From the NCBI GenBank assembly GCA_947477565.1, contig CANJUR010000006.1:70668-134667 (forward strand): a stretch of 64,000 bases of DNA. Direction: 5' to 3'. The translations under genes were made by a program, and so were the position numbers. The notes below the pieces were generated by a model. The model made no database searches. It saw nothing but the letters and a program-made list of their open reading frames with translations, and was not told where the DNA came from. Of the stretch, positions 4,417 through 54,960 are shown one piece after another (the stretch's first letter is position 1; every line of letters begins with the position of its first letter). Source of the stretch: Deltaproteobacteria bacterium (GTDB lineage: Bacteria; Myxococcota_A; Polyangia; Polyangiales; Ga0077539).

Positions 4417-5175
4417 ATGCAGCGAACGTCTGGCCTGCCCAAGAGCGTGTTGACTGGCTCCGTGTTCGCGCTCGTTGGGGCGTTGATTTTTGGCGCTTCC
4501 GTCGCGAGTTCCAACGCGCCGTGCCCGGATGGGATGGCCTTTGTCGCCGGCAGCGGATTCTGCGTCGATCGGTACGAGGCCTCCCTGGTGGAGATCCAAC
4601 CGGACGGTCGGGAGGTCCCGCATTCGCCCTACATGAGCCCGGGGCGGGCCGATGTGCGGGCGGTCACGCGCCGCGGGGTTGTTCCGCAAGGGTACATCTC
4701 GCAAGTGGAGGCCACCCGCGCTTGCGCCCGATCTGGAAAGCGGTTGTGCTCGGAGCGTGAGTGGTTCCGCTCGTGTCGCGGACCCAACGGTCGAACCCAG
4801 GGTTACAGCAACCAGCGCGAAGAGGGTCGCTGCAACGAAAACCACCGATGGCATCCCGTGGTCCGACTGTTCCGCGCCACCACCCCGTACCTCTGGGGCA
4901 TGGCGCTTATGAACGACCCGCAGATCAACCAACTCCCAGGCACCGTGTCGCTCACCGGTGCGCATGCGGGCTGCACCAACGAGCATGGCGTCTATGACAT
5001 GGTGGGCAACCTCCATGAGTGGACGGCCACCTCGACGGGCACGTTTCGTGGCGGTTATTTCATGGATACGACGATCAACGGCGAGGGCTGCTGGTATCGC
5101 ACCCTCGGCCACAACACCGCGTATCACGACTACTCCATCGGCTTCCGCTGCTGCGCAACGGCCGGAGAAGAATAG
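4417..5175 (+). CDS. Formylglycine-generating-enzyme (FGE-sulfatase/SUMF1) domain protein with N-terminal signal/anchor
   Basis: Hydrophobic N-terminus VLTGSVFALVGALIFGASVA. Then FCVDRYEAS, VYDMVGNLHEWT, FRGGYF and IGFRCC, typical of FGE-sulfatase domains. Confidence 0.8.
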   Translation: MQRTSGLPKSVLTGSVFALVGALIFGASVASSNAPCPDGMAFVAGSGFCVDRYEASLVEIQPDGREVPHSPYMSPGRADVRAVTRRGVVPQGYISQVEATRACARSGKRLCSEREWFRSCRGPNGRTQGYSNQREEGRCNENHRWHPVVRLFRATTPYLWGMALMNDPQINQLPGTVSLTGAHAGCTNEHGVYDMVGNLHEWTATSTGTFRGGYFMDTTINGEGCWYRTLGHNTAYHDYSIGFRCCATAGEE

Positions 5176-5234
5176 TCCCTCATCGTGTCGTGATCGAGCG
5201 TGAGCCCTGCGCTTGAAGTAGCGTCTCCGCACTC

Positions 5235-7001
5235 ATGATTCGAATGCCCTCCCCTGGATCCCCGCTGCCAGGAGGATTCATCCTCGGCATGTTGAGCCAT
5301 GCCGATCGCATCGGACTGCTCTACGAGGCTTTCCCTTCCGAGCGACAGGGACAGAAGTCGCGCGCGCTGGTTCTCCATCCCCTCCATGTCGATGAACTTC
5401 GGGATTGGTTCGAGCGCTCAGCCGTACTCGGGCGGAGCCTGAAGCACCCCAGTCTCGTAGAGGTGCACGCGCTCGGGTACACCGCCAACCAGCTTCCGGT
5501 CGTGGTCACCGAGTGGACGGACGGACAGACGTTGCGCAGCCGCATAGGGGGCGGCGAGGTGATTCCTGTGATGGAGATCCGTCGCGTGATCGACCAGGTC
5601 GCGGCGGCGCTCGATTACCTCCACGGACGCGGCACGCCGGTGCTGCACCGCGTGATCATGCCCGAGACGGTGCTCATCTCACCGAGGCCCCTACCGGTGA
5701 AGCTCCTCTCGGTGGGACACGCCGACCGGCCGCTGCACCCGGCCTCGAAGCCGAGTTACCTCTCTCCCGAAGAGTTGGACGGACACTCCGAACTCACGCC
5801 TGCAGCGGACATCTTCTCTCTCGCGACGCTGGCCTTCGAGGCCATCACCGGGCGCATCGCGTTTCCAGGCCCCACGGCGGCGGCGGTGTTGAGCGCGATG
5901 CAGCGGCGGCAACTGCCGTACATCGCGCTCGCGCCCCAGGAGGGCCTGCAGCCGCTCGATGACTTTTTACACCGAGCCTGGGCAATGGATCCGTCAAGGC
6001 GAGCCGCGACGGCGGGCGAGTTCGCAATGGAGTTGACCGAGGCGATCAAGCAAGTGCCCGGAGCGCTGCTGGCCTCGCGACGCACCGTGCGCGACGGGGT
6101 GCTCCGCGCCCGCACAATGCCCCCGATTGCGGGAGCGATGGGCCGCCAGGGAGCGATGCGCTCGCAGACTCCCGTTCCGCACACCCCGTGGGCCTCGACG
6201 CGACCGCCACCGATGGTGGTACGGCTGCCTTCCTCGCGGCCGCTTTCATCGCTGCCCGGGCCGGCCGGCAACCCTCCACGAATGAATTCCGGCCCTCCCT
6301 CACAGCAACGTGCAGCGGGGGTGGACTTCCCGGTCGGCAATCGGCGCGCCGATGAGGATGTCCACGACCGGCTGAGCCTAAACAAGCCCGATCGCGATGC
6401 CCGCCCCTGGGCCGACATGCAAGAGATCCTGCCGCTGACCTCGCGGAAGCCGTTGATTTCCGTGTTGGGAACTTCGGATGAGGACGACGCGGAGATCACC
6501 CTTGTGCCAGTCGATATCGACGACCCGGAGGTGCTTGCGCTGCTCTCCGAGGACTTCACCAGCCCAGTGATTCCGCCGCTCGTCCCACGCGTGCCCGTCG
6601 ACCGCAAGGTGCCGCAGTTCGAGGGCGATTTCGCCGATCATCCAGTGCCCATCGCGCCAACCCGGCCGCCGAACCGACTGCCGTCAGCGGCGGGCTCGCC
6701 GGCTCACTCGGGCCTCCCGTCGCCGATGCGCGCACAGACCCAGCCCTCGGGTTTTCCCAGCGCGATGCAGCAACGGGTGCTTACCTCCCTACGTAACGAT
6801 CGACCCCCAGAGTTCGACCCGTCGCCGGTTTCACGGTTCGATCGCCCCGATCTGCGTGTCCGCGACGCGCCCACCGCTTCGGTGCTTCCGTGGCACTCCC
6901 GGGAGCTCAAGGTCACCCCGTGGATCATCGCCGTGGTGCTCTCGTTGAACCTCGTGCTCACGGGTGCGCTCGGGGTCGTGCTGCGACACTTCCTCCTCTG
7001 A
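5235..7001 (+). CDS. Hanks-type Ser/Thr kinase-like pseudokinase, Pro-rich linker, C-terminal TM anchor
   Basis: Kinase-fold markers LKHPSLVEV, LDYLH, YLSPEEL, DIFSLATLAFE. Catalytic motifs substituted: ALVLH (VAIK Lys to His48), HRV for HRD (138-140), IMPET for LKPEN, SVG for DFG (159-161). About 330 aa of P/S/R-rich sequence follows, then WIIAVVLSLNLVLTGALGVVL at the C-terminus. Confidence 0.75.
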   Translation: MIRMPSPGSPLPGGFILGMLSHADRIGLLYEAFPSERQGQKSRALVLHPLHVDELRDWFERSAVLGRSLKHPSLVEVHALGYTANQLPVVVTEWTDGQTLRSRIGGGEVIPVMEIRRVIDQVAAALDYLHGRGTPVLHRVIMPETVLISPRPLPVKLLSVGHADRPLHPASKPSYLSPEELDGHSELTPAADIFSLATLAFEAITGRIAFPGPTAAAVLSAMQRRQLPYIALAPQEGLQPLDDFLHRAWAMDPSRRAATAGEFAMELTEAIKQVPGALLASRRTVRDGVLRARTMPPIAGAMGRQGAMRSQTPVPHTPWASTRPPPMVVRLPSSRPLSSLPGPAGNPPRMNSGPPSQQRAAGVDFPVGNRRADEDVHDRLSLNKPDRDARPWADMQEILPLTSRKPLISVLGTSDEDDAEITLVPVDIDDPEVLALLSEDFTSPVIPPLVPRVPVDRKVPQFEGDFADHPVPIAPTRPPNRLPSAAGSPAHSGLPSPMRAQTQPSGFPSAMQQRVLTSLRNDRPPEFDPSPVSRFDRPDLRVRDAPTASVLPWHSRELKVTPWIIAVVLSLNLVLTGALGVVLRHFLL

Positions 7002-7029
7002 TCGGGGCGATGATAACGTTCCGGGCCTC

Positions 7030-8244
7030 ATGAGCGCTTCTTCTGCCCCCAGAGTCTACATCGTCGATGCCGTCCGCACGCCCATCGGCCGTTACCGTGG
7101 GGGACTCGCCACGGTTCGCTCGGATGACCTCGCCGCCCGGACCATCGCCGCACTGTTGCACCGTGTTCCGGCGGCGCGAGAGGTGATCGACGAGGTGGTT
7201 TTCGGCGCCACAAATCAGGCCGGCGAGGACAACCGCAACGTCGCCCGTATGGCCCTGCTCCTCGCCGGTTTGCCCTACGAAGTGACCGGCGTGACGGTCA
7301 ATCGGCTCTGTGGTTCCGGCCTCGAGGCGATTCAGTACGCGTACCGCGCCATCGCGATGGGCGAACGCTCGGTGATGATCGCCGGCGGAGTCGAGAGCAT
7401 GACCCGCGCGCCGTTCGTGATGGCCAAGGCGACCGAGGCCTTCGACCGGGCCGTACCCGCGATGTTCGACACCTCCCTGGGTTGGCGCTTTACCAACCCG
7501 AAGATGGCCGCTCGATTCCCCCTCGAGTCGATGGGCGAGACCGCCGAAAACGTCGCCGCGCTGCACTCGATCTCCCGTGAAGACCAGGATCGATTCGCCC
7601 TTGGAAGCCATCAGCGGGCCGCTCGCGCCGCGGCCGACGGGGCGTTCGGCGACGAACTGGTGCCCATCGAGATCCCGCAACGGAAGGGACCGCTCGTGAT
7701 CGTCGGCGCAGACGAGTCGGTTCGCTCGGATGCGTCGCTCGAACAACTCGCGAAGCTCTCGCCGGTGTTTCGCAAGGACGGAACCGTCACCGCAGGCAAC
7801 TCGTCGCCGATCAATGACGGCGCATCGGCCGTGCTGGTGGCCTCCGAGGAATTCGTGCAAAAGCATGGACTTACGCCCCTTGGGAGGGTGATCTCCAACG
7901 CCGTCGCGGGCGTCGAACCGGGGCTGATGGGCCTCGGTCCGATCCCTGCGATGACTCAGGCGCTCACCCGCGCGCACCTCTCCGTCGGCGCCCTCGATAC
8001 CGTAGAACTCAACGAGGCCTTCGCGGCACAGGCGCTCGCTTGCATCGCAAGGCTCAACCTCGACCCCGCCATCGTGAACCCCGACGGCGGTGCCATCGCA
8101 CTGGGTCACCCCATTGGCTCTTCCGGGGCGCGGCTCGCGACGACGCTTCTCCATCGAATGCGCCGACAGAGCCTGCGGTATGGCGCAGCCTCCCTCTGCA
8201 TCGGCGTGGGGCAGGGGATCGCCACGATCTTTACCCGCGACTAA
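7030..8244 (+). CDS. Acetyl-CoA C-acetyl/acyltransferase (thiolase II family)
   Basis: VYIVDAVRTPIGRYRG, NRLCGSGLEAI (nucleophilic Cys), NEAFAAQ, GGAIALGHPIGSSGARL, LCIGVGQG. ATG at 7030 preferred over the track start at 6964, which overlaps the end of the upstream gene. Confidence 0.92.
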   Translation: MSASSAPRVYIVDAVRTPIGRYRGGLATVRSDDLAARTIAALLHRVPAAREVIDEVVFGATNQAGEDNRNVARMALLLAGLPYEVTGVTVNRLCGSGLEAIQYAYRAIAMGERSVMIAGGVESMTRAPFVMAKATEAFDRAVPAMFDTSLGWRFTNPKMAARFPLESMGETAENVAALHSISREDQDRFALGSHQRAARAAADGAFGDELVPIEIPQRKGPLVIVGADESVRSDASLEQLAKLSPVFRKDGTVTAGNSSPINDGASAVLVASEEFVQKHGLTPLGRVISNAVAGVEPGLMGLGPIPAMTQALTRAHLSVGALDTVELNEAFAAQALACIARLNLDPAIVNPDGGAIALGHPIGSSGARLATTLLHRMRRQSLRYGAASLCIGVGQGIATIFTRD

Positions 8245-48907: not shown

Positions 48908-50337
48908 TGGGCGGCACGGTGCTGGTGGTCGATGACGAGAAGAACATCCGTCGCACGCTGCGGATGGTGCTGGAGGGCGACGACCTGGAGGTGCGCGACG
49001 TCGAGCGCGCGGAGGACGCGCTGCGGGTGCTCGCGGAGGAGCCGATCGACGCGGTGGTCACGGATATCCGGCTGCCGGGGATGTCGGGCATCGACTTGCT
49101 GCAGCGCATCCGGGGTACGGCGAACTGGGCGGCGATCCCGGTGCTGGTGATCTCCGGGCACGCGACCGTGGGCGTGGCGGTGGACGCCATCAAGCTGGGC
49201 GCGACGGACTTCTTCGAGAAGCCGCTCGACCGCGATCGCGTGCTGGTCAGCGTGCGCAACGCGCTGCGGGCGTCGCGGCTTGAGCGCGAGGTGATCGCGC
49301 TGCGCTCGGCGGCCGGGGCGCGCGAGGAGATGGTCGGGGAGAGCGCGGTGATGCGGCGGCTTTACACGGAGGTGGAGAAGGTCGCGCCGACCCGGGGGAG
49401 GGTGCTCATCACCGGCGAGAGCGGAACCGGCAAGGAGCTTATTGCGAAGGCGATTCATCGGATGTCGCCGCGGCGCGAGGGGCCCTTCGTGAAGGTCAAC
49501 TGCGCGGCCATCCCTGCGGAGTTGGTGGAGAGCGAACTGTTTGGGCATGAGAAGGGCGCGTTCACCGGCGCGGTGGCGCGCAAGCGGGGGCACTTCGAGG
49601 CGGCGCACGGCGGCACGCTCTTCCTCGACGAGATCGGCGACATGCCGCTGGCGGCGCAGGCCAAGGTGCTGCGGGTACTTCAGAGCGGTGAGGTAAACCG
49701 CGTCGGGAGCGACCAGGTGTTTACCGTCGATGTGCGGGTGCTGGCGGCGACGCACCGCGACCTCGAGCGCGAGTCCCGCGAAGGGCGCTTCCGCGAGGAC
49801 CTGTATTTTCGGCTCAACGTGGTGCCCATCCGGTCGCCTGCGCTGCGCGAGCACCCGGAGGACATCTCGTTGCTGGTTCGGTCGTTCTTGCGGGAGTTCT
49901 GCAAGGAGAACGGGCTGAAGGCGAAGTCCATTGCTCCGGGGGTGCTCGACGCGCTGCGGGGCCGTGGGTTTCCCGGCAACGTGCGTGAGTTGAAAAACCT
50001 CGTCGAGCGGTTGGTGATCTTGTCCGGCGACGAGATCACGTTGGAAGACCTTCCCGAGGAGTCGCGGCACTCCCGCGAGGCGCGCGAGCGCACCGCTGCG
50101 GCGACCGTTTCTGTGGCCGTTCGGGACGATGACGACGACGACGATGTGGGTCCGCCGCGGGCACCGGGCGAGCGTGCCACGCTGCGGCAGCACCGCGACG
50201 ACGCCGAGCGCGCCTACATCCTCGACACCCTCAAGGAGGTGGACTGGAACATCTCCCGCGCCTCGACCCTCCTCGGCCTGGAGCGCACCAACCTGCACAA
50301 GAAGATTCGCGCTCTGGGCCTCAAGCGCGAGGGGTGA
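48907..50337 (+). CDS. Sigma-54-dependent response regulator (NtrC family)
   Basis: VLVVDDE...[14 protein letters not shown] (REC), [23 protein letters not shown]-terminal [27 protein letters not shown]. Confidence 0.92.
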
Positions 50338-50377
50338 CTTGCGTGCCCCGGGGGGACGCACTACTCGCTCAAACGCC

Positions 50378-50860
50378 ATGCAACTCCGCACGTTTCGGTT
50401 TGTTCTCCCGTTTCTGCTCACCCTGTCGGCGGGCTGCAATCGCGCGCCCGATGAGCCCGCCGGGCGCACCGCGACGACCGCGCTCCCGGCGTCTCCCGCG
50501 TCTCCCTCGTCTCCCGCGTCGGCGCACGGAGCGCCGGCCACCGTGGGGGCGTCGCACGTGCTGGTGATGCACCGCGGGTCTGAGCGGGTTCCGCCGAACG
50601 TCACGCGCACCCGCGAAGAGGCCCGGACGCGCATCGAGGACGTACTGCGGCGCGCTCGCGCAAGTCAGGATTTCGCTGCGCTAGCAAGGGAGTTCAGCGA
50701 CGAGCCGGGCGCGAGCAGCAGCGGCGGAAGTCTCGGGATGTTCGGGCACGGGGCGATGGTTCCGGCCTTCGATCAGGCGGCGTTTGCGCTCAGCGTCGGG
50801 CAAATCAGCGAGATCGTGGAGACCCCGTTCGGGTTCCACGTGATCAAGCGAACGCAGTAA
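50378..50860 (+). CDS. Parvulin-type peptidyl-prolyl cis-trans isomerase lipoprotein (PpiC/PrsA-like)
   Basis: MQLRTFRFVLPFLLTLSAGC (lipobox). ASHVLV, FAALAREFSDEPGASSSGGSLGMFGHGAMVPAFDQAAF, ETPFGFHVIKR. Confidence 0.85.
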   Translation: MQLRTFRFVLPFLLTLSAGCNRAPDEPAGRTATTALPASPASPSSPASAHGAPATVGASHVLVMHRGSERVPPNVTRTREEARTRIEDVLRRARASQDFAALAREFSDEPGASSSGGSLGMFGHGAMVPAFDQAAFALSVGQISEIVETPFGFHVIKRTQ

Positions 50861-50879
50861 CGGGGCGTCGGGGAGGGGC

Positions 50880-51302
50880 CATAGGCGTTACCCGTCGATT
50901 GAAAGGCGGGCGGAGCTTGCCCCGCCCGCGGTGAATCAGGTGGTGAATGCTACAGCCGCACTTCGGGGAATCCGTTCGGCAACGGCTGCAAGCGGCTGGC
51001 GGATCGGGGTTGGTCGCGTCCCGCGCCTGCACCCGCAGGCTAACGAAAGCAGGCTCCCACTCCGCGGGCTAACGGAAGGGATGAACGACTCGATCTCGTT
51101 TGTTGGGAGCTCGATGACGGCTGCCAAAGCGTCGGGGAGTTCAGCTCCGCGGGCGAGTCGACGTCCTTCCGAAAGCCCCGTCAGGGGCGCCTGCTTTCGT
51201 TAGCCTGGGGTGCAGGCGCGGGACGCGACCAACCCCAGCAGCGCCGCTCGCGCCCCGTATGAACGGCCTCCCCGAAGTGCGGCGGTAGCATCAACGCCTA
51301 TG
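50880..51302. repeat. Roughly 420-bp imperfect palindrome (nested inverted repeats) in the ppiC-ileS intergenic region
   Basis: Arm pairs: 50880-50889 with 51293-51302 (10/10); 50947-50977 with 51261-51291 (28/31); 51006-51054 with 51189-51236 (48 of 49, one bulged C). Central 134 nt is unpaired. Confidence 0.85.
50906..50929 (+). terminator. GC-only hairpin downstream of ppiC (possible terminator; no U tract)
   Basis: GCGGGCGG-agcttgcc-CCGCCCGC, a perfect 8-bp stem, 46 nt after the stop at 50860. Confidence 0.25.
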
Positions 51303-51504
51303 CCTCCGGGGGTCCCCCTTCCTATGCCGAGCTGCCGCGCCTGGCGTCCAGTTTGGAAAAAAAGTTGATTAGCCCTTCAGGCGGCTTTGCGGGAGTCCCT
51401 GTCCAAGGTCTCGAGTCGCGTTTTCCGGCGCGAGCCCGAGAGCGCTGCGCTCGCGCGGTTTCTGTCGGCGCTGTACGCAGCGATGGCGGACGACCTAGCG
51501 AGCA

Positions 51505-51672
51505 ACGCTCGCGAGCGTCTCCGACATCCCGATCACGGAGCAAAAGACGCTCGCGAGCGTCTCCGACATCCCGATCACGGAGCAAAAGACGCTCGCGAGC
51601 CTCTCCGACATCCCGACGAGGCACCGATATACGTTCGCGAACGTCTCCGACACCCTCGATGAGGGTGTGGGC
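51505..51672 (+). repeat. Four tandem, exactly phased 42-bp repeats, each starting with a 14-bp palindrome
   Basis: Units start at 51505, 51547, 51589 and 51631. Units 1 and 2 are identical (ACGCTCGCGAGCGTCTCCGACATCCCGATCACGGAGCAAAAG). Unit 3 matches 27/28 at its 5' end. Unit 4 carries the palindrome variant ACGTTCGCGAACGT. Confidence 0.9.
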
Positions 51673-51819
51673 GCCCTCCTCCGCTTCGCCGTGGGTGAGG
51701 CGTCGTCCGTGGGCGAGGCGCGACTCCCCCGAAGGTCACCTCGCTCGCGGCGCTCGTCCGCCGCGTCCGCCCTGCTGCTCTTCTGGAACGCCCCGCCCGG
51801 GTGTGATAGGCGATCGCCC

Positions 51820-54800
51820 GTGCCGAGGGATTACAAAGCGACGTGCCTGCTGCCGAAGACTGCCTTCCCGATGAAGGGCGACCTCTTCAAGCGTGAGCCT
51901 CAGTGGCTTGCCCGCTGGGAGTCCACGGGGCTCTACGAGCGCATCCTGGCGCGTCCGGTCGATGGGCGCTTCGTCTTCCACGACGGCCCGCCGTACGCCA
52001 ACGGGCACATGCACTACGGGCACATCCTCAACAATGCGTTGAAGGACTTCGTGACCCGCTCGCGCAACCTTCTGGGCGAGCGCACGCGCTTCATCCCCGG
52101 CTGGGACTGCCACGGGCTTCCCATCGAACTCAACGTGGACCGCGAAGTGAAGCGCAAGAAGGAGAACGTCTCCCCGACGGAGATGCGCGTGCGCTGCCGC
52201 GACGAGGCCGCGAAGTGGGTCGAGGTGCAGCGAACCGAGCGCAAGCGACTCGGGGTGCTGGGCACCTGGGAGACCCCTTACCTCACGATGAACAAGGCCT
52301 TCGAGGCGCAGGTGATCCGCGCGCTGCGGGCCTTCGTGGCGAACGAGATCGTCTACCGCGGCAAGAAGCCGGTGCAGTGGTGCTGGCACTGCCGCACGGC
52401 GCTCGCGGAGGCCGAGGTGGAGTACGCCGACGCCCACGTGTCGCCGTCGATCTATGTGAAGTTCGCGCTCGACGCGCAGAGCCTGGAGACGCTGCGGGCG
52501 AAGCTCCCCGCGGGCGTCACCCGCGTAGCCGCCCTCATCTGGACCACCACCCCGTGGACCATCCCCGCCAACCTTGCGATCGCGGTGCACCCGGCGCTCG
52601 ACTACGTGGTGCTTCAGGGCGTCGATGGAGAAGGTCTCCTCGTGGCGACGAGCCTCGCCGCGGCGGTGGCGAAGGCGGCCGGCCTGACCGACCTCGTGGT
52701 GGGACCGGCGTTCAAGGGAGAGTTGCTTCTTGGGGTGAAGGCGAAGCATCCCTTCGAGGAGCGCTGGGCGGAGGTGTTTGGCGCCGATTACGTCGAGAGC
52801 GGCGCGGGTACCGGGCTTGTGCACACGGCGCCGGGCCACGGACGCGACGACTACAAGCTCGGGAGCGCGCACGGCCTCGAGGCGTACGCACCGGTCGGCG
52901 ACGACGGCCGCTACACCGGTGAGCTTGGCGACGGCGCAAAGGCGATGGGCCTCGAAGGGAAGTTCATCTTCGACGCTAACCCCGTGGTCGAGCAGCACCT
53001 GCGCTCCCTCGGGGCGCTGCTGCAGCCGCCGGGGCAGACCCTCACGCACAAGTATCCGATCTGCTGGCGCTGCAAAAACCCGCTCATTACCCGCGCGACC
53101 ACGCAGTGGTTCATCGCGATGGACGAGCCGATGCGGGCGCCTGGCTCGGACGGCCACACGCTGCGTGCGCGGGCCCTCTCGGAGATCGATCGCCTCGCCG
53201 CGGACGGAGCGCGGGCTGCGAGCGAGGGCACCGCGCGGGGGTGGGTTCCGTCCTGGGGGCGCGAGCGCATCCGCGGAATGATCGAGGCCCGGCCGGACTG
53301 GTGCATCTCGCGGCAGCGCATCTGGGGCGTTCCGATTCCTGCGGTGCAGCACAAGGCGACCGGCGAGGTGGTGCTCACCACCGAACTCCTCGACCACGTG
53401 GCCAACGTCTTCGCCGAGCGCGGCGCAGATGCCTGGTACAGCGACGATCCGACGGTGCTGCCGGCGGAGATTCGCTGCGCCGACGGGGTGTTGCGACCGC
53501 GCGAGGAGTTCACCCGCGACGGCAGCATCATCGACGTGTGGTTTGAGTCTGGGAGTTCGTTCTTCGCGGTGTGCGAGCCGGAGCCCGACCTCGGGGCGAA
53601 GGTAGATCTCTACCTTGAGGGCAGCGACCAGCACCGCGGGTGGTTTCACTCGTCGCTGCTGGTGGGCTGCGCGGTGTTGGGCGAGGCGCCGTACCGGGCG
53701 GTGCTCACGCACGGCTTCGTCTGCGACGACCAGGGGCGTCCGTACTCCAAGAGCGACATCCGCCGCCGGCAGGAGGCGCGACGAGACGAGATCACCGCGC
53801 GCATCACGAAGGGCGAAGCGCTCGAAGGGGTGCTCGCGGCGATGAAGAGCACCTGGGCGACGCCGGAGAAGATCGCCGACGCGAAGAAGCGTCTGGCGAA
53901 GAAGACCTCCCTCGACGACGTTGCGCTCGCGATCGCCCAGGACGACATCGAGTTCATTCCCCCGGAGAAGATCATCGCCGAGCAGGGGGCCGAGCTGTTT
54001 CGCGCGTGGGCGGTCTTCGTAGATTACGAAAACGACATGCCCTACTCGCGTGCCGTATTGAACCAGGCCATCGACGCCTATCGGCGGGTGCGCAACACGA
54101 TGCGGTTCATGCTGGGTGCGCTACGCGACGAGCCTGCACCGCTGCTCTCGGAGGTGGTTCTCGAGCCTCTCGATCGCTGGGCGATGGTTCGCCTCGGCGA
54201 GGTGCTCGCGAAGTGCGAGCGGGCCTATCGGCAGTACTCGTTTCGCGAGGTGTTCGCGACGGTGGTGGACTTCTGCCAGGAGCTGTCGGGCCTCTACCTC
54301 GATGCCTCCAAGGACTGGCTCTACAACGACGCCGCGGACGTCCCGCGCCGCCGCTCGGCGCTCGCCACGATGCAGCACCTCGTGCGGTCGCTGGCCGCGG
54401 TGGTTGCGCCCATTCTCCCGTTCTCCTCCGAAGACGTCTGGGATCACCTCCCGGCCTTCGAGGCGAAGGGTGACAGCGTGCATCTGGAGCTGTGGCCGAC
54501 GGTGACTCCCCTCGCTGATGGCGAGGCGTTGATTGTGGCGATGCGTCGGCTGCGCACGCTTCGCGACGGGGTGTTTGCGGTGCTCGAGCCGGTGGTTCAG
54601 GGCTGGGGCGTGGAGAAGCAGGCTGCGAAGAAGGCGGGCCGCGAGCCAGGGGCGGGTGAAGTCAGCTTCTCCGACGACGCCCGCATCGACCATGCCCGCG
54701 ATGCCGCGGTGTCTCTCGAAGTCTCCGAGGCCGACCGCGCCGAACTCGGACCGCTCGCCCCGCAGGTCGCCGAGCTACTCGGGCTGGGCTCCATCGAACT

Positions 54801-54960
54801 GGTCGCCGGTCCGATCGCGGGCGAGCGCGTGCGACGGGCGTTGGGTCCGTCCTGTGAGCGTTGCTGGCGTCGCCGTGGCGATGTGGGCGGTGACGGGCTA
54901 TGTCCCCGCTGTCGTCACGCCGTCGAAGTCTTTGACCGCGCCGCTGGCGCTCCCGCGTAG
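51820..54960 (+). CDS. ileS: Isoleucine--tRNA ligase
   Basis: DYKATCLLPKTAFPMKGDL, PPYANGHMHYGH (HIGH), WCISRQRIWGVPIP, PYSKS at the KMSKS position, C-terminal zinc knuckles CERCW...CPRC. GTG at 51820 preferred; the track start at 51667 adds a junk-like extension. Confidence 0.93.
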   Translation: MPRDYKATCLLPKTAFPMKGDLFKREPQWLARWESTGLYERILARPVDGRFVFHDGPPYANGHMHYGHILNNALKDFVTRSRNLLGERTRFIPGWDCHGLPIELNVDREVKRKKENVSPTEMRVRCRDEAAKWVEVQRTERKRLGVLGTWETPYLTMNKAFEAQVIRALRAFVANEIVYRGKKPVQWCWHCRTALAEAEVEYADAHVSPSIYVKFALDAQSLETLRAKLPAGVTRVAALIWTTTPWTIPANLAIAVHPALDYVVLQGVDGEGLLVATSLAAAVAKAAGLTDLVVGPAFKGELLLGVKAKHPFEERWAEVFGADYVESGAGTGLVHTAPGHGRDDYKLGSAHGLEAYAPVGDDGRYTGELGDGAKAMGLEGKFIFDANPVVEQHLRSLGALLQPPGQTLTHKYPICWRCKNPLITRATTQWFIAMDEPMRAPGSDGHTLRARALSEIDRLAADGARAASEGTARGWVPSWGRERIRGMIEARPDWCISRQRIWGVPIPAVQHKATGEVVLTTELLDHVANVFAERGADAWYSDDPTVLPAEIRCADGVLRPREEFTRDGSIIDVWFESGSSFFAVCEPEPDLGAKVDLYLEGSDQHRGWFHSSLLVGCAVLGEAPYRAVLTHGFVCDDQGRPYSKSDIRRRQEARRDEITARITKGEALEGVLAAMKSTWATPEKIADAKKRLAKKTSLDDVALAIAQDDIEFIPPEKIIAEQGAELFRAWAVFVDYENDMPYSRAVLNQAIDAYRRVRNTMRFMLGALRDEPAPLLSEVVLEPLDRWAMVRLGEVLAKCERAYRQYSFREVFATVVDFCQELSGLYLDASKDWLYNDAADVPRRRSALATMQHLVRSLAAVVAPILPFSSEDVWDHLPAFEAKGDSVHLELWPTVTPLADGEALIVAMRRLRTLRDGVFAVLEPVVQGWGVEKQAAKKAGREPGAGEVSFSDDARIDHARDAAVSLEVSEADRAELGPLAPQVAELLGLGSIELVAGPIAGERVRRALGPSCERCWRRRGDVGGDGLCPRCRHAVEVFDRAAGAPA

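Follow-up and report, generated by a model that had tools for sequence, protein, structure and literature searches.

Inverted doublets of repetitive extragenic palindromic (REP) sequences tied to a Y1 transposase form the basis of the REPIN/RAYT model (REP doublets forming hairpins and REP-associated tyrosine transposases; PMC3116915, PMC5581495). Di Nocera et al. (2013, PMC3733652) described another arrangement, TIRtrons, in which Y1 genes (TIRYTs) lie between long terminal inverted repeats (TIRs), some of these TIRs being moderately abundant repeat families that also occur as dimers. Most published TIRYTs fall into subclass 2.1, with a C-terminal helix-turn-helix (HTH) domain and a Y---NP motif (PMC6006769); TnpA-Y1 subclass 1.2, with the motifs Y---Q--HH and DH[IV]H and about 148 aa, has been published as being without REPs (Quentin et al. 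2018, PMC6006769, Table 1). We analyzed a 64,000-nucleotide stretch (the window) of contig CANJUR010000006.1, which belongs to a Polyangiales (Myxococcota) metagenome-assembled genome (MAG) from lake water (6.65 Mb in 252 contigs, 68% GC; G000 below), and in which a giant palindrome lies between the genes ppiC and ileS. We consider it probable, at roughly 0.78, that positions 50949-51290 are a non-autonomous palindromic interspersed repeat of the REPIN or TIR-repeat kind, the arms of which flank a Y1 (HUH) gene in related genomes.

The repeated element and its arms

A search of the organism's own assembly with the palindromic region returned 27 loci, several of them at contig ends. Per-base repeat depth is 0 up to about position 50948, 15-25 across 50949-51290 and 0 thereafter; the repeated DNA is limited to these 342 bp and its edges are sharp. 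The element is thus multi-copy, which refutes a neutral local inverted duplication. An earlier sequence-only reading of the window, which had proposed such a BLAST search with one arm, had suggested a non-autonomous element resembling a miniature inverted-repeat transposable element (MITE), or two diverged inverted copies of one unit, and this proved essentially right, with Y1/HUH and not DDE as the likely enzyme.

The same reading had drawn a single nested palindrome of about 420 bp. All of the inverted pairs that it claimed are present in the sequence, as are a local GC hairpin (50906-50929) and inverted CGGAAGG..CGACTCG motifs in the apical region (51066-51079/51165-51178, 86%), but the outermost part is not repeat: because depth is 0 outside 50949-51290, the outer 10-bp pair (50880-50889/51293-51302, 10/10, within a 15-nt pair at 87%, 50875-50889/51293-51307) and the 57-nt "bulge" of the left arm are single-copy flank. 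By our own estimate, a 10/10 pair within about 1.2 kb is roughly what chance would provide. The left flank (50861-50948) holds the GC hairpin and the left half of this pair (50875-50889), and the right half, AACGCCTATG..., occupies 51293-51307. A CATAGGCG-like motif makes up the outer 10-bp pair in the window and is found 5-10 nt beyond the ends of several copies, for example in the flanks at G000:C47:7589 and C4:110780; it may reflect a preferred target or be what is left of an outermost tip that has decayed.

As judged from inverted pairs, copy comparison and mapped ends, the element has a 126-nt core enclosed by two REP-like arms, each about 105 nt long and inverted relative to one another. 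On the left, the type 1 arm (50951-51058, + strand) has an outer hairpin module, CAGCCGC..CCCGTT-CGGC-AACGGG..GCGGCTG, followed by an inner unit, GGGGTTGGTCGCGTCCCGCGCCTGCACCC..GGCTAA... The right arm (type 2, 51185-51288) is inverted relative to the left, and its + strand reads as a REP-like unit comprising a hairpin GCCCC-GTCA-GGGGC (51175-51188), TTAGCC (51200-51205) and a hairpin CTGGGGT...ACCCCAG (51205-51238). Pairing between the arms is perfect at 51006-51034/51208-51236 (29/29) and extends at 92% as 51033-51058/51185-51210, which together equal the 48/49 match with one bulged C of the sequence-only reading; farther out, 50947-50977 pairs with 51261-51291 at 28/31. It is in the outer halves that the two arm types diverge. 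The apical core (51059-51184) is conserved at about 85% in the long copies of the genome and differs or is missing in relatives. We also considered the core as the remnant of a Y1 gene, as in a MITE formed by internal deletion, and this is unsupported, its local alignment score falling inside the shuffle range.

The hairpin is far more stable than chance would allow. RNA folding of 50870-51312 gave -304.2 kcal/mol on the + strand and -302.7 kcal/mol on the - strand, against -208 and -193 kcal/mol for shuffles (z = -17 and -18.7), and none of 100 shuffles matched it.

Both arms are spanned at 4 of the loci, namely the window copy, two copies about 550 bp apart on C2 and one on C168, the other loci being partial. 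One of the C2 copies is without the tip of one arm. The C168 copy (C168:8190-8640) is a longer variant nested in a further palindromic module that reads CAGCATAAGCCGGGGCAC...CGCTTCG directly after a TA; with the outer module included, the palindrome is nearly perfect over about 450 bp (a 482-nt segment folds at -432 kcal/mol) and has AAACTCCCCTGCG on both flanks. Nearly all mapped element termini consist of TA followed immediately by CAGCCGCAC or CGACAGCCGCAC, and in the window a TA abuts both ends of the element on the outside. Across 13 doublets, the two arms of one copy have an identity of 0.95, compared with 0.89 for arms from different copies, and changes specific to a lineage are seen on both arms, which fits a doublet that replicates as a unit.

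Y1 genes between the arms

The repeat family occurs in 11 of the 41 related genomes searched, comprising six of the eight congeners and genera g5 and g8 of the same taxonomic family, outside which no member was found in this set. Congener genomes yielded dozens of matches. Its conserved portion is the inner ~75 nt of each arm, GGGGTTGGTCGCGTCCCGCGCCTGCACCC..GGC(T/A)A..GCAGGCGCCCC, which is 80-100% conserved in congeners and mostly present in relatives as an inverted doublet with a variable apical segment between the units. The outer arm segment with its TA-CAG tip was found only in the genome of the window.

Searching the relatives with the Pfam Y1_Tnp model, we located one Y1 gene in G001 (C223:84610-84951) and one in G008 (C794:1053-1394), both bracketed exactly by inverted arms of the studied family. 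These loci are orthologous: they have the same outer-membrane-like neighbor gene, and their proteins are 92% identical. In G001 one arm stops about 60 nt before the ATG of the Y1 gene and the other begins about 5 nt past its stop codon, leaving no space for separate transposon ends. A 55-60% identical Y1 gene in a different genus (G019:C26) is also bracketed by arms of the studied family and is split by an IS630-like element (L093 1258-2424), which consists of an HTH open reading frame (ORF) and a DDE ORF. Judged by this gene order, arms and Y1 gene in the relatives appear to form a REPtron or TIRtron arrangement.

The arm-flanked protein has 143-161 aa, with Y1_Tnp (73 bits) as its sole Pfam domain; the G001 protein carries the HUH motif DHAH and the Y motif YVDNQPRHH. 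It scores 64.6 bits against the NCBIfam IS200/IS605 equivalog (cutoff 55), and the closest solved structures are IS200/IS605-family transposases, ISHp608 TnpA among them. Genomes have one to five Y1 matches, mostly mutually divergent paralogues; the exceptions to single-copy lineages are G002, with three identically scoring copies, and G011, with two.

Long inverted arms are also found around paralogous and distant Y1 genes. All five of the other paralogue lineages that we tested are flanked by inverted arms of 81-151 nt with 93-97% complementarity. One of these five is the only clear Y1 gene in the genome of the window, on C176 (L089 162-847; YIRDQPRHH, DHVH); it has 81-nt inverted arms with 93% complementarity, and its arm constitutes a third repeat family of this genome, present at about 10 loci and often as doublets (C156, C192, C244, C87). 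Distant homologues come from Verrucomicrobiota, Acidobacteriota, Planctomycetota, Bacteroidota, and other phyla; 43 of 65 lie between inverted arms that are 30 nt or longer, and 76 of 79 have the Y---Q--HH motif. In a 9.3-Mb Blastocatellia (Acidobacteriota) MAG, the arm of the Y1 gene gave 62 matches across the genome, many of which are inverted doublets with a spacing of about 10 nt. A TAGCC pentamer stands beside a hairpin on both sides at 29 of 69 loci, compared with 5 of 69 for the opposite orientation, and Polyangiales arms carry T(T/A)GCC or CTTGCC at the equivalent position. The REP-like unit of hairpin, TAGCC, and hairpin points toward the Y1 gene in most distant homologues (L094-L173) and away from it in Polyangiales (L077, L084).

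In its layout the family closely follows REPIN-RAYT systems. It consists of dispersed, mostly intergenic inverted doublets that form hairpins, and its arms flank a low-copy Y1/HUH gene in G001, G008 and G019, the organism's own assembly being without such a gene. Each paralogous Y1 gene has a separate repeat family, the Y1 gene occupies an orthologous locus in two congeners, and the repeat population persists in genomes that lack the enzyme. The differences lie in the arms, which are 75-110 nt long and mosaics of two or three hairpins where REPs have 20-40 nt; in the length of the whole element, which is 340 bp and reaches about 450 bp in the C168 copy; in the Y motif, Y---Q--HH as opposed to the Y---NP of class 2, in an enzyme that scores as IS200-like; and in the host, a Polyangiales (Myxococcota) MAG.

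With TIRtrons the family shares the long terminal inverted repeats that bracket Y1 genes, some of the arms themselves being repeat families. The GGGGWSAS of most published TIRs is unmatched, however, the arms here reading GGGGTTGG or GGGGTTCA, and the proteins differ from TIRYTs in having 143-161 aa, no extra domain and Y---Q--HH. Their YVDNQPRHH or YIRDQPRHH, DH[VIA]H, length of about 148 aa, low copy number, and divergent paralogues agree with subclass 1.2, to which we assign them by motif and length. Unlike the published members of that subclass, the genes here lie inside long inverted arms of genome-wide palindromic repeat families in Myxococcota and Acidobacteriota. An association of subclass 1.2-type Y1 genes with repeats is therefore not described in the literature that we consulted, of which later work was surveyed in part.

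Other comparisons are less close. IS200/IS605 elements and PATEs have subterminal hairpins that differ between the left and right end of one strand, no terminal inverted repeats, and many near-identical tnpA copies, whereas the ends here are long inverted repeats and the Y1 gene is single-copy per lineage outside G002 and G011. Bacterial MITEs and bacterial interspersed mosaic elements (BIMEs), such as Correia/NEMIS, ERIC, RUP, and the Escherichia coli BIMEs, are similar in being non-coding intergenic hairpin repeats of 100-350 bp assembled as mosaics of modules, and the family is a target of other mobile elements, as has been reported for REPs (PMC1525189). They differ in their partner, which is Y1/HUH here; we found no DDE partner or target-site duplication.

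By analogy with the IS200/IS605 TnpA enzymes of IS608 and ISDra2 and with E. coli TnpA-REP, the Y1 enzyme would most likely recognize the folded arm on single-stranded DNA (ssDNA), for example at a replication fork, and cleave and rejoin the DNA beside the hairpin, the doublet being copied as one unit. The population in the genome of the window is probably old and orphaned, given that the cognate Y1 gene is missing from the assembly, that many copies are either incomplete or split by a second repeat family (Z, described below), and that those we examined proved to be fixed in diverged strains. Contigs of four lake metagenomes, a diverged strain included, carry the window copy with both of its junctions, and a short copy on C197 is likewise fixed in diverged strains (contigs from four runs, two of them common to the window-copy analysis).

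The ppiC-ileS junction and other mobile elements

The spacer that holds the element is 959 bp long, as the sequence-only reading had it (about 960 bp), and Pfam confirmed both neighbors. Upstream is a ppiC-type peptidyl-prolyl isomerase gene (50129-50860, + strand; Rotamase_3 96.6 bits, Rotamase 86.6 bits) that is orthologous in congeners, and downstream is ileS (51820-54960, + strand, GTG start at 51820; tRNA-synt_1 185 bits). Homology to congeners on the ileS side starts at 51749-51808. The 3' part of ppiC (50556-50860) matches paralogous DNA at one other place in the genome (repeat depth 1). Closer to ileS, at 51505-51672 (+ strand), the spacer contains three to four exactly phased 42-bp tandem repeats with the internal palindrome ACGCTCGCGAGCGT; they are separate from the palindromic element and confined to this single locus apart from self-matches.

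The same junction varies greatly within the genus. In congeners G007 and G008 the distance between ppiC and ileS is only 26-70 bp, and window positions 50861-51748 are without a counterpart; the block of about 890 bp that carries the element is thus additional DNA, of which the palindrome makes up one part, and the junction is hypervariable. The junction holds 3.2, 6.5, and 7.5 kb in G003 (L056 646-3897), G002 (L055, C3, 5614-12136), and G001 (L054 4466-12001), respectively, that of G002 encoding an AAA_21/AbiEii-like ATPase, unknown ORFs, and an OPT oligopeptide transporter in two separate ORFs. In G005 a related palindromic element and a sequence resembling the 3' end of a G003 group II intron are located just upstream of ileS. 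In these comparisons the junction of ppiC and ileS stands out, within the genus, as a hotspot for variable DNA.

The group II intron uses the arms as insertion sites. G003 has at least five copies of the element with arms 2.1-2.5 kb apart, and at all three of the loci examined a group II intron lies in one arm (L033 on C34, ~5138-7614; L035 4889-6906; L037 1485-3501). Two further arm pairs in G003 (C14; C34:217-219 kb) have the same spacing of 2.1-2.2 kb and the same arm truncation point, and the interrupted arm ends at a constant position, arm nt 44-48, in all intron-spaced copies. The intron protein has 456 aa, with RVT_1 and GIIM domains and no endonuclease domain; in the two loci scanned for it, L033 and L037, the intron RNA scored 105.7 bits against Rfam RF02001. 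Read base by base, the L033 intron begins with GTGCG directly after a terminator-like hairpin, GCCCC-N4-GGGGC GCCTGCTTT. In the genome of the window, C184 (L091; 7190-7232, 6639-6750) has a sequence resembling the 3' part of the G003 intron, ..GCTGATGCGCAT joined to CGCGTGGGCTTTCG, which abuts an arm. Neither intron RNA nor reverse transcriptase is present there, and we rejected C184 as an intron; the sequence may be a short, 5'-truncated remnant at most. A SAM-I/IV riboswitch (52 bits) lies about 500 nt from it on the minus strand.

The arms also meet a second palindromic repeat family, Z, which is more abundant in the genome than the studied element, with 75 BLAST hits (L012 on C65, 76-155; C52:34363-34560; C68:1-174; C87:7097-7327; and about 40 other places). 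Z has an 80-nt arm, CAACGACCCGTTGGAGGGCTAAGG...CTCACCCCCAACCCCCTCTCC, around a core of about 70 nt, for a total of about 230 bp, and in some copies the arm runs on into GGGTTCACCTCGGGACACATCTCACGATTCGGCTGTAAT... up to contig ends. It inserts after A/T-rich spots, often within the studied element, many copies of which are cut by it. We considered and rejected the idea that the Z sequence beside many copies is an intron end, Z being a separate and more abundant palindromic repeat.

Competing explanations and significance

Several observations weigh against a Y1-associated repeat. The foot tag is TTAGCC in the organism's own genome and CTTGCC in G001, the canonical GTAG being absent; GTAGCC is found only in the paralogous lineage G019:C9 and in some distant homologues. 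The Y1 protein fails the NCBIfam REP_Tyr_transpos model (NF047646), with 21.9 bits against a cutoff of 80. Single arms folded as ssDNA are no more stable than shuffles (z = -1.2 and +0.2), and for this reason the case for a conserved arm structure is made from sequence comparison and not from energy. Tblastn located no cognate Y1 gene in the organism's own assembly, the best match being 36% identical and having different arms, and none was present at ≥80% nucleotide identity in four metagenomes that hold the organism, where the G001 locus was covered at the arms only. G003, with at least 40 arm matches, is without a close cognate Y1 gene. Y1 gene and arms are linked by association, and in principle the palindrome could have been there first and have received the Y1 gene by insertion, as demonstrably happened with the group II intron and the IS630-like element. 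Metagenome contigs yielded neither an empty site nor a new insertion at the window and C197 copies, and when the flanks of the copies on C197, C9, and C21 were joined, no congener had them adjacent; mobility of the element is something we infer and have not observed.

The alternative that survives best, while still unlikely, is a classical DDE-type MITE of the IS630/Tc1-mariner kind, moved by cut-and-paste with TA duplication and having long terminal inverted repeats that start with CAG. A TA abuts almost every mapped terminus, as this would predict, but TA is self-palindromic and may be the mere tip of the inverted repeat, and neither metagenome contigs nor congeners supplied an empty site that would reveal a TA duplication. 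Removal of the window copy leaves ATGC-TA-GCAT, which contains CTAG, the target preference of IS630. An IS630-like element is indeed present in the family, at the G019 locus; the organism's own genome has no DDE_3 (PF13358) match, however, although control genomes do match. The outer segment with its TA-CAG tip is, moreover, genome-specific, and it is the conserved inner unit that flanks the Y1 genes.

Less probable again is a structure useful to the host, its repeat nature being secondary: a transcription barrier or insulator between ppiC and ileS, a 3' hairpin stabilizing mRNA, or an RNase III substrate. The extreme stability of the hairpin on both strands would suit such a role, as would GC hairpins in the arms that are followed by T-rich tracts (GCCCC-N4-GGGGC, then GCCTGCTTTCG); the congener group II intron inserts right behind this motif, in the manner of terminator-seeking introns, and REPs and MITEs can influence neighboring transcripts (PMC3733652), so that such a role may exist here as a side effect. 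Against this, the element is missing from the same junction in G007 and G008 and so is dispensable there, its copies lie in unrelated contexts and are often truncated, and our scan returned no consensus terminator or promoter. A search for RNA runs that contain the stretch came back empty. Nor does it match an Rfam family. The sequence-only reading had raised a large structured noncoding RNA, and searching the spacer against Rfam 15 with permissive filters gave only MIR918, at 66.4 bits against a gathering threshold of 268, a spurious hit of the kind that any generic long hairpin may attract; scans of further repeat, intron, and Y1 loci in this genome and its relatives found nothing that matched the element.

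A DNA switch that works by inversion, the apical 134 nt flipping between 49-bp inverted repeats, can practically be dismissed, as it has in its favor only the geometry of long inverted repeats around a short segment upstream of a gene, whereas the neighbors are ppiC and ileS with no recombinase gene beside the element, 27 copies lie in unrelated contexts, the region including the apical segment has no sigma-70-type promoter, and contigs of four metagenomes contain no locus-specific inversion joint, the sole "opposite strands" joint (51005/51236) falling inside the repeated arms as an assembler product at palindromes.

Beyond this locus, we tentatively propose, as a possibility that we rate below even odds, that Y1 enzymes with Y---Q--HH (subclass 1.2) make up a second, phylum-spanning RAYT-like clade. 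Such a clade would have long arms with a tag of the (G/T)TAGCC type beside a hairpin and giant doublets of up to about 450 bp, and would extend through Myxococcota and Acidobacteriota and probably Verrucomicrobiota, Planctomycetota, and Bacteroidota. Group II introns and other elements would habitually insert into its doublets, and the copy in the window would be left over from a population of this kind that has outlived its enzyme.

At the ppiC-ileS locus, reading the palindrome as a Y1-associated repeat means that the hairpin would be selfish repetitive DNA, as opposed to a regulator dedicated to ppiC or ileS. It would also explain the poor assembly of these genomes, since the arms are points at which contigs break. 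Long-lived intragenomic replicators with vertical inheritance have their textbook example in REPIN-RAYT systems, described chiefly from Proteobacteria and a small number of further groups, where class 2 Y1 enzymes go with short GTAG REPs. What is new here is a REPIN-like layout around a Y1 subclass reported to be without REPs, with longer mosaic arms and in understudied phyla known from MAGs. It may thus offer a second, independent system for learning how Y1 enzymes read folded ssDNA and how repeat populations survive the loss of their enzyme.

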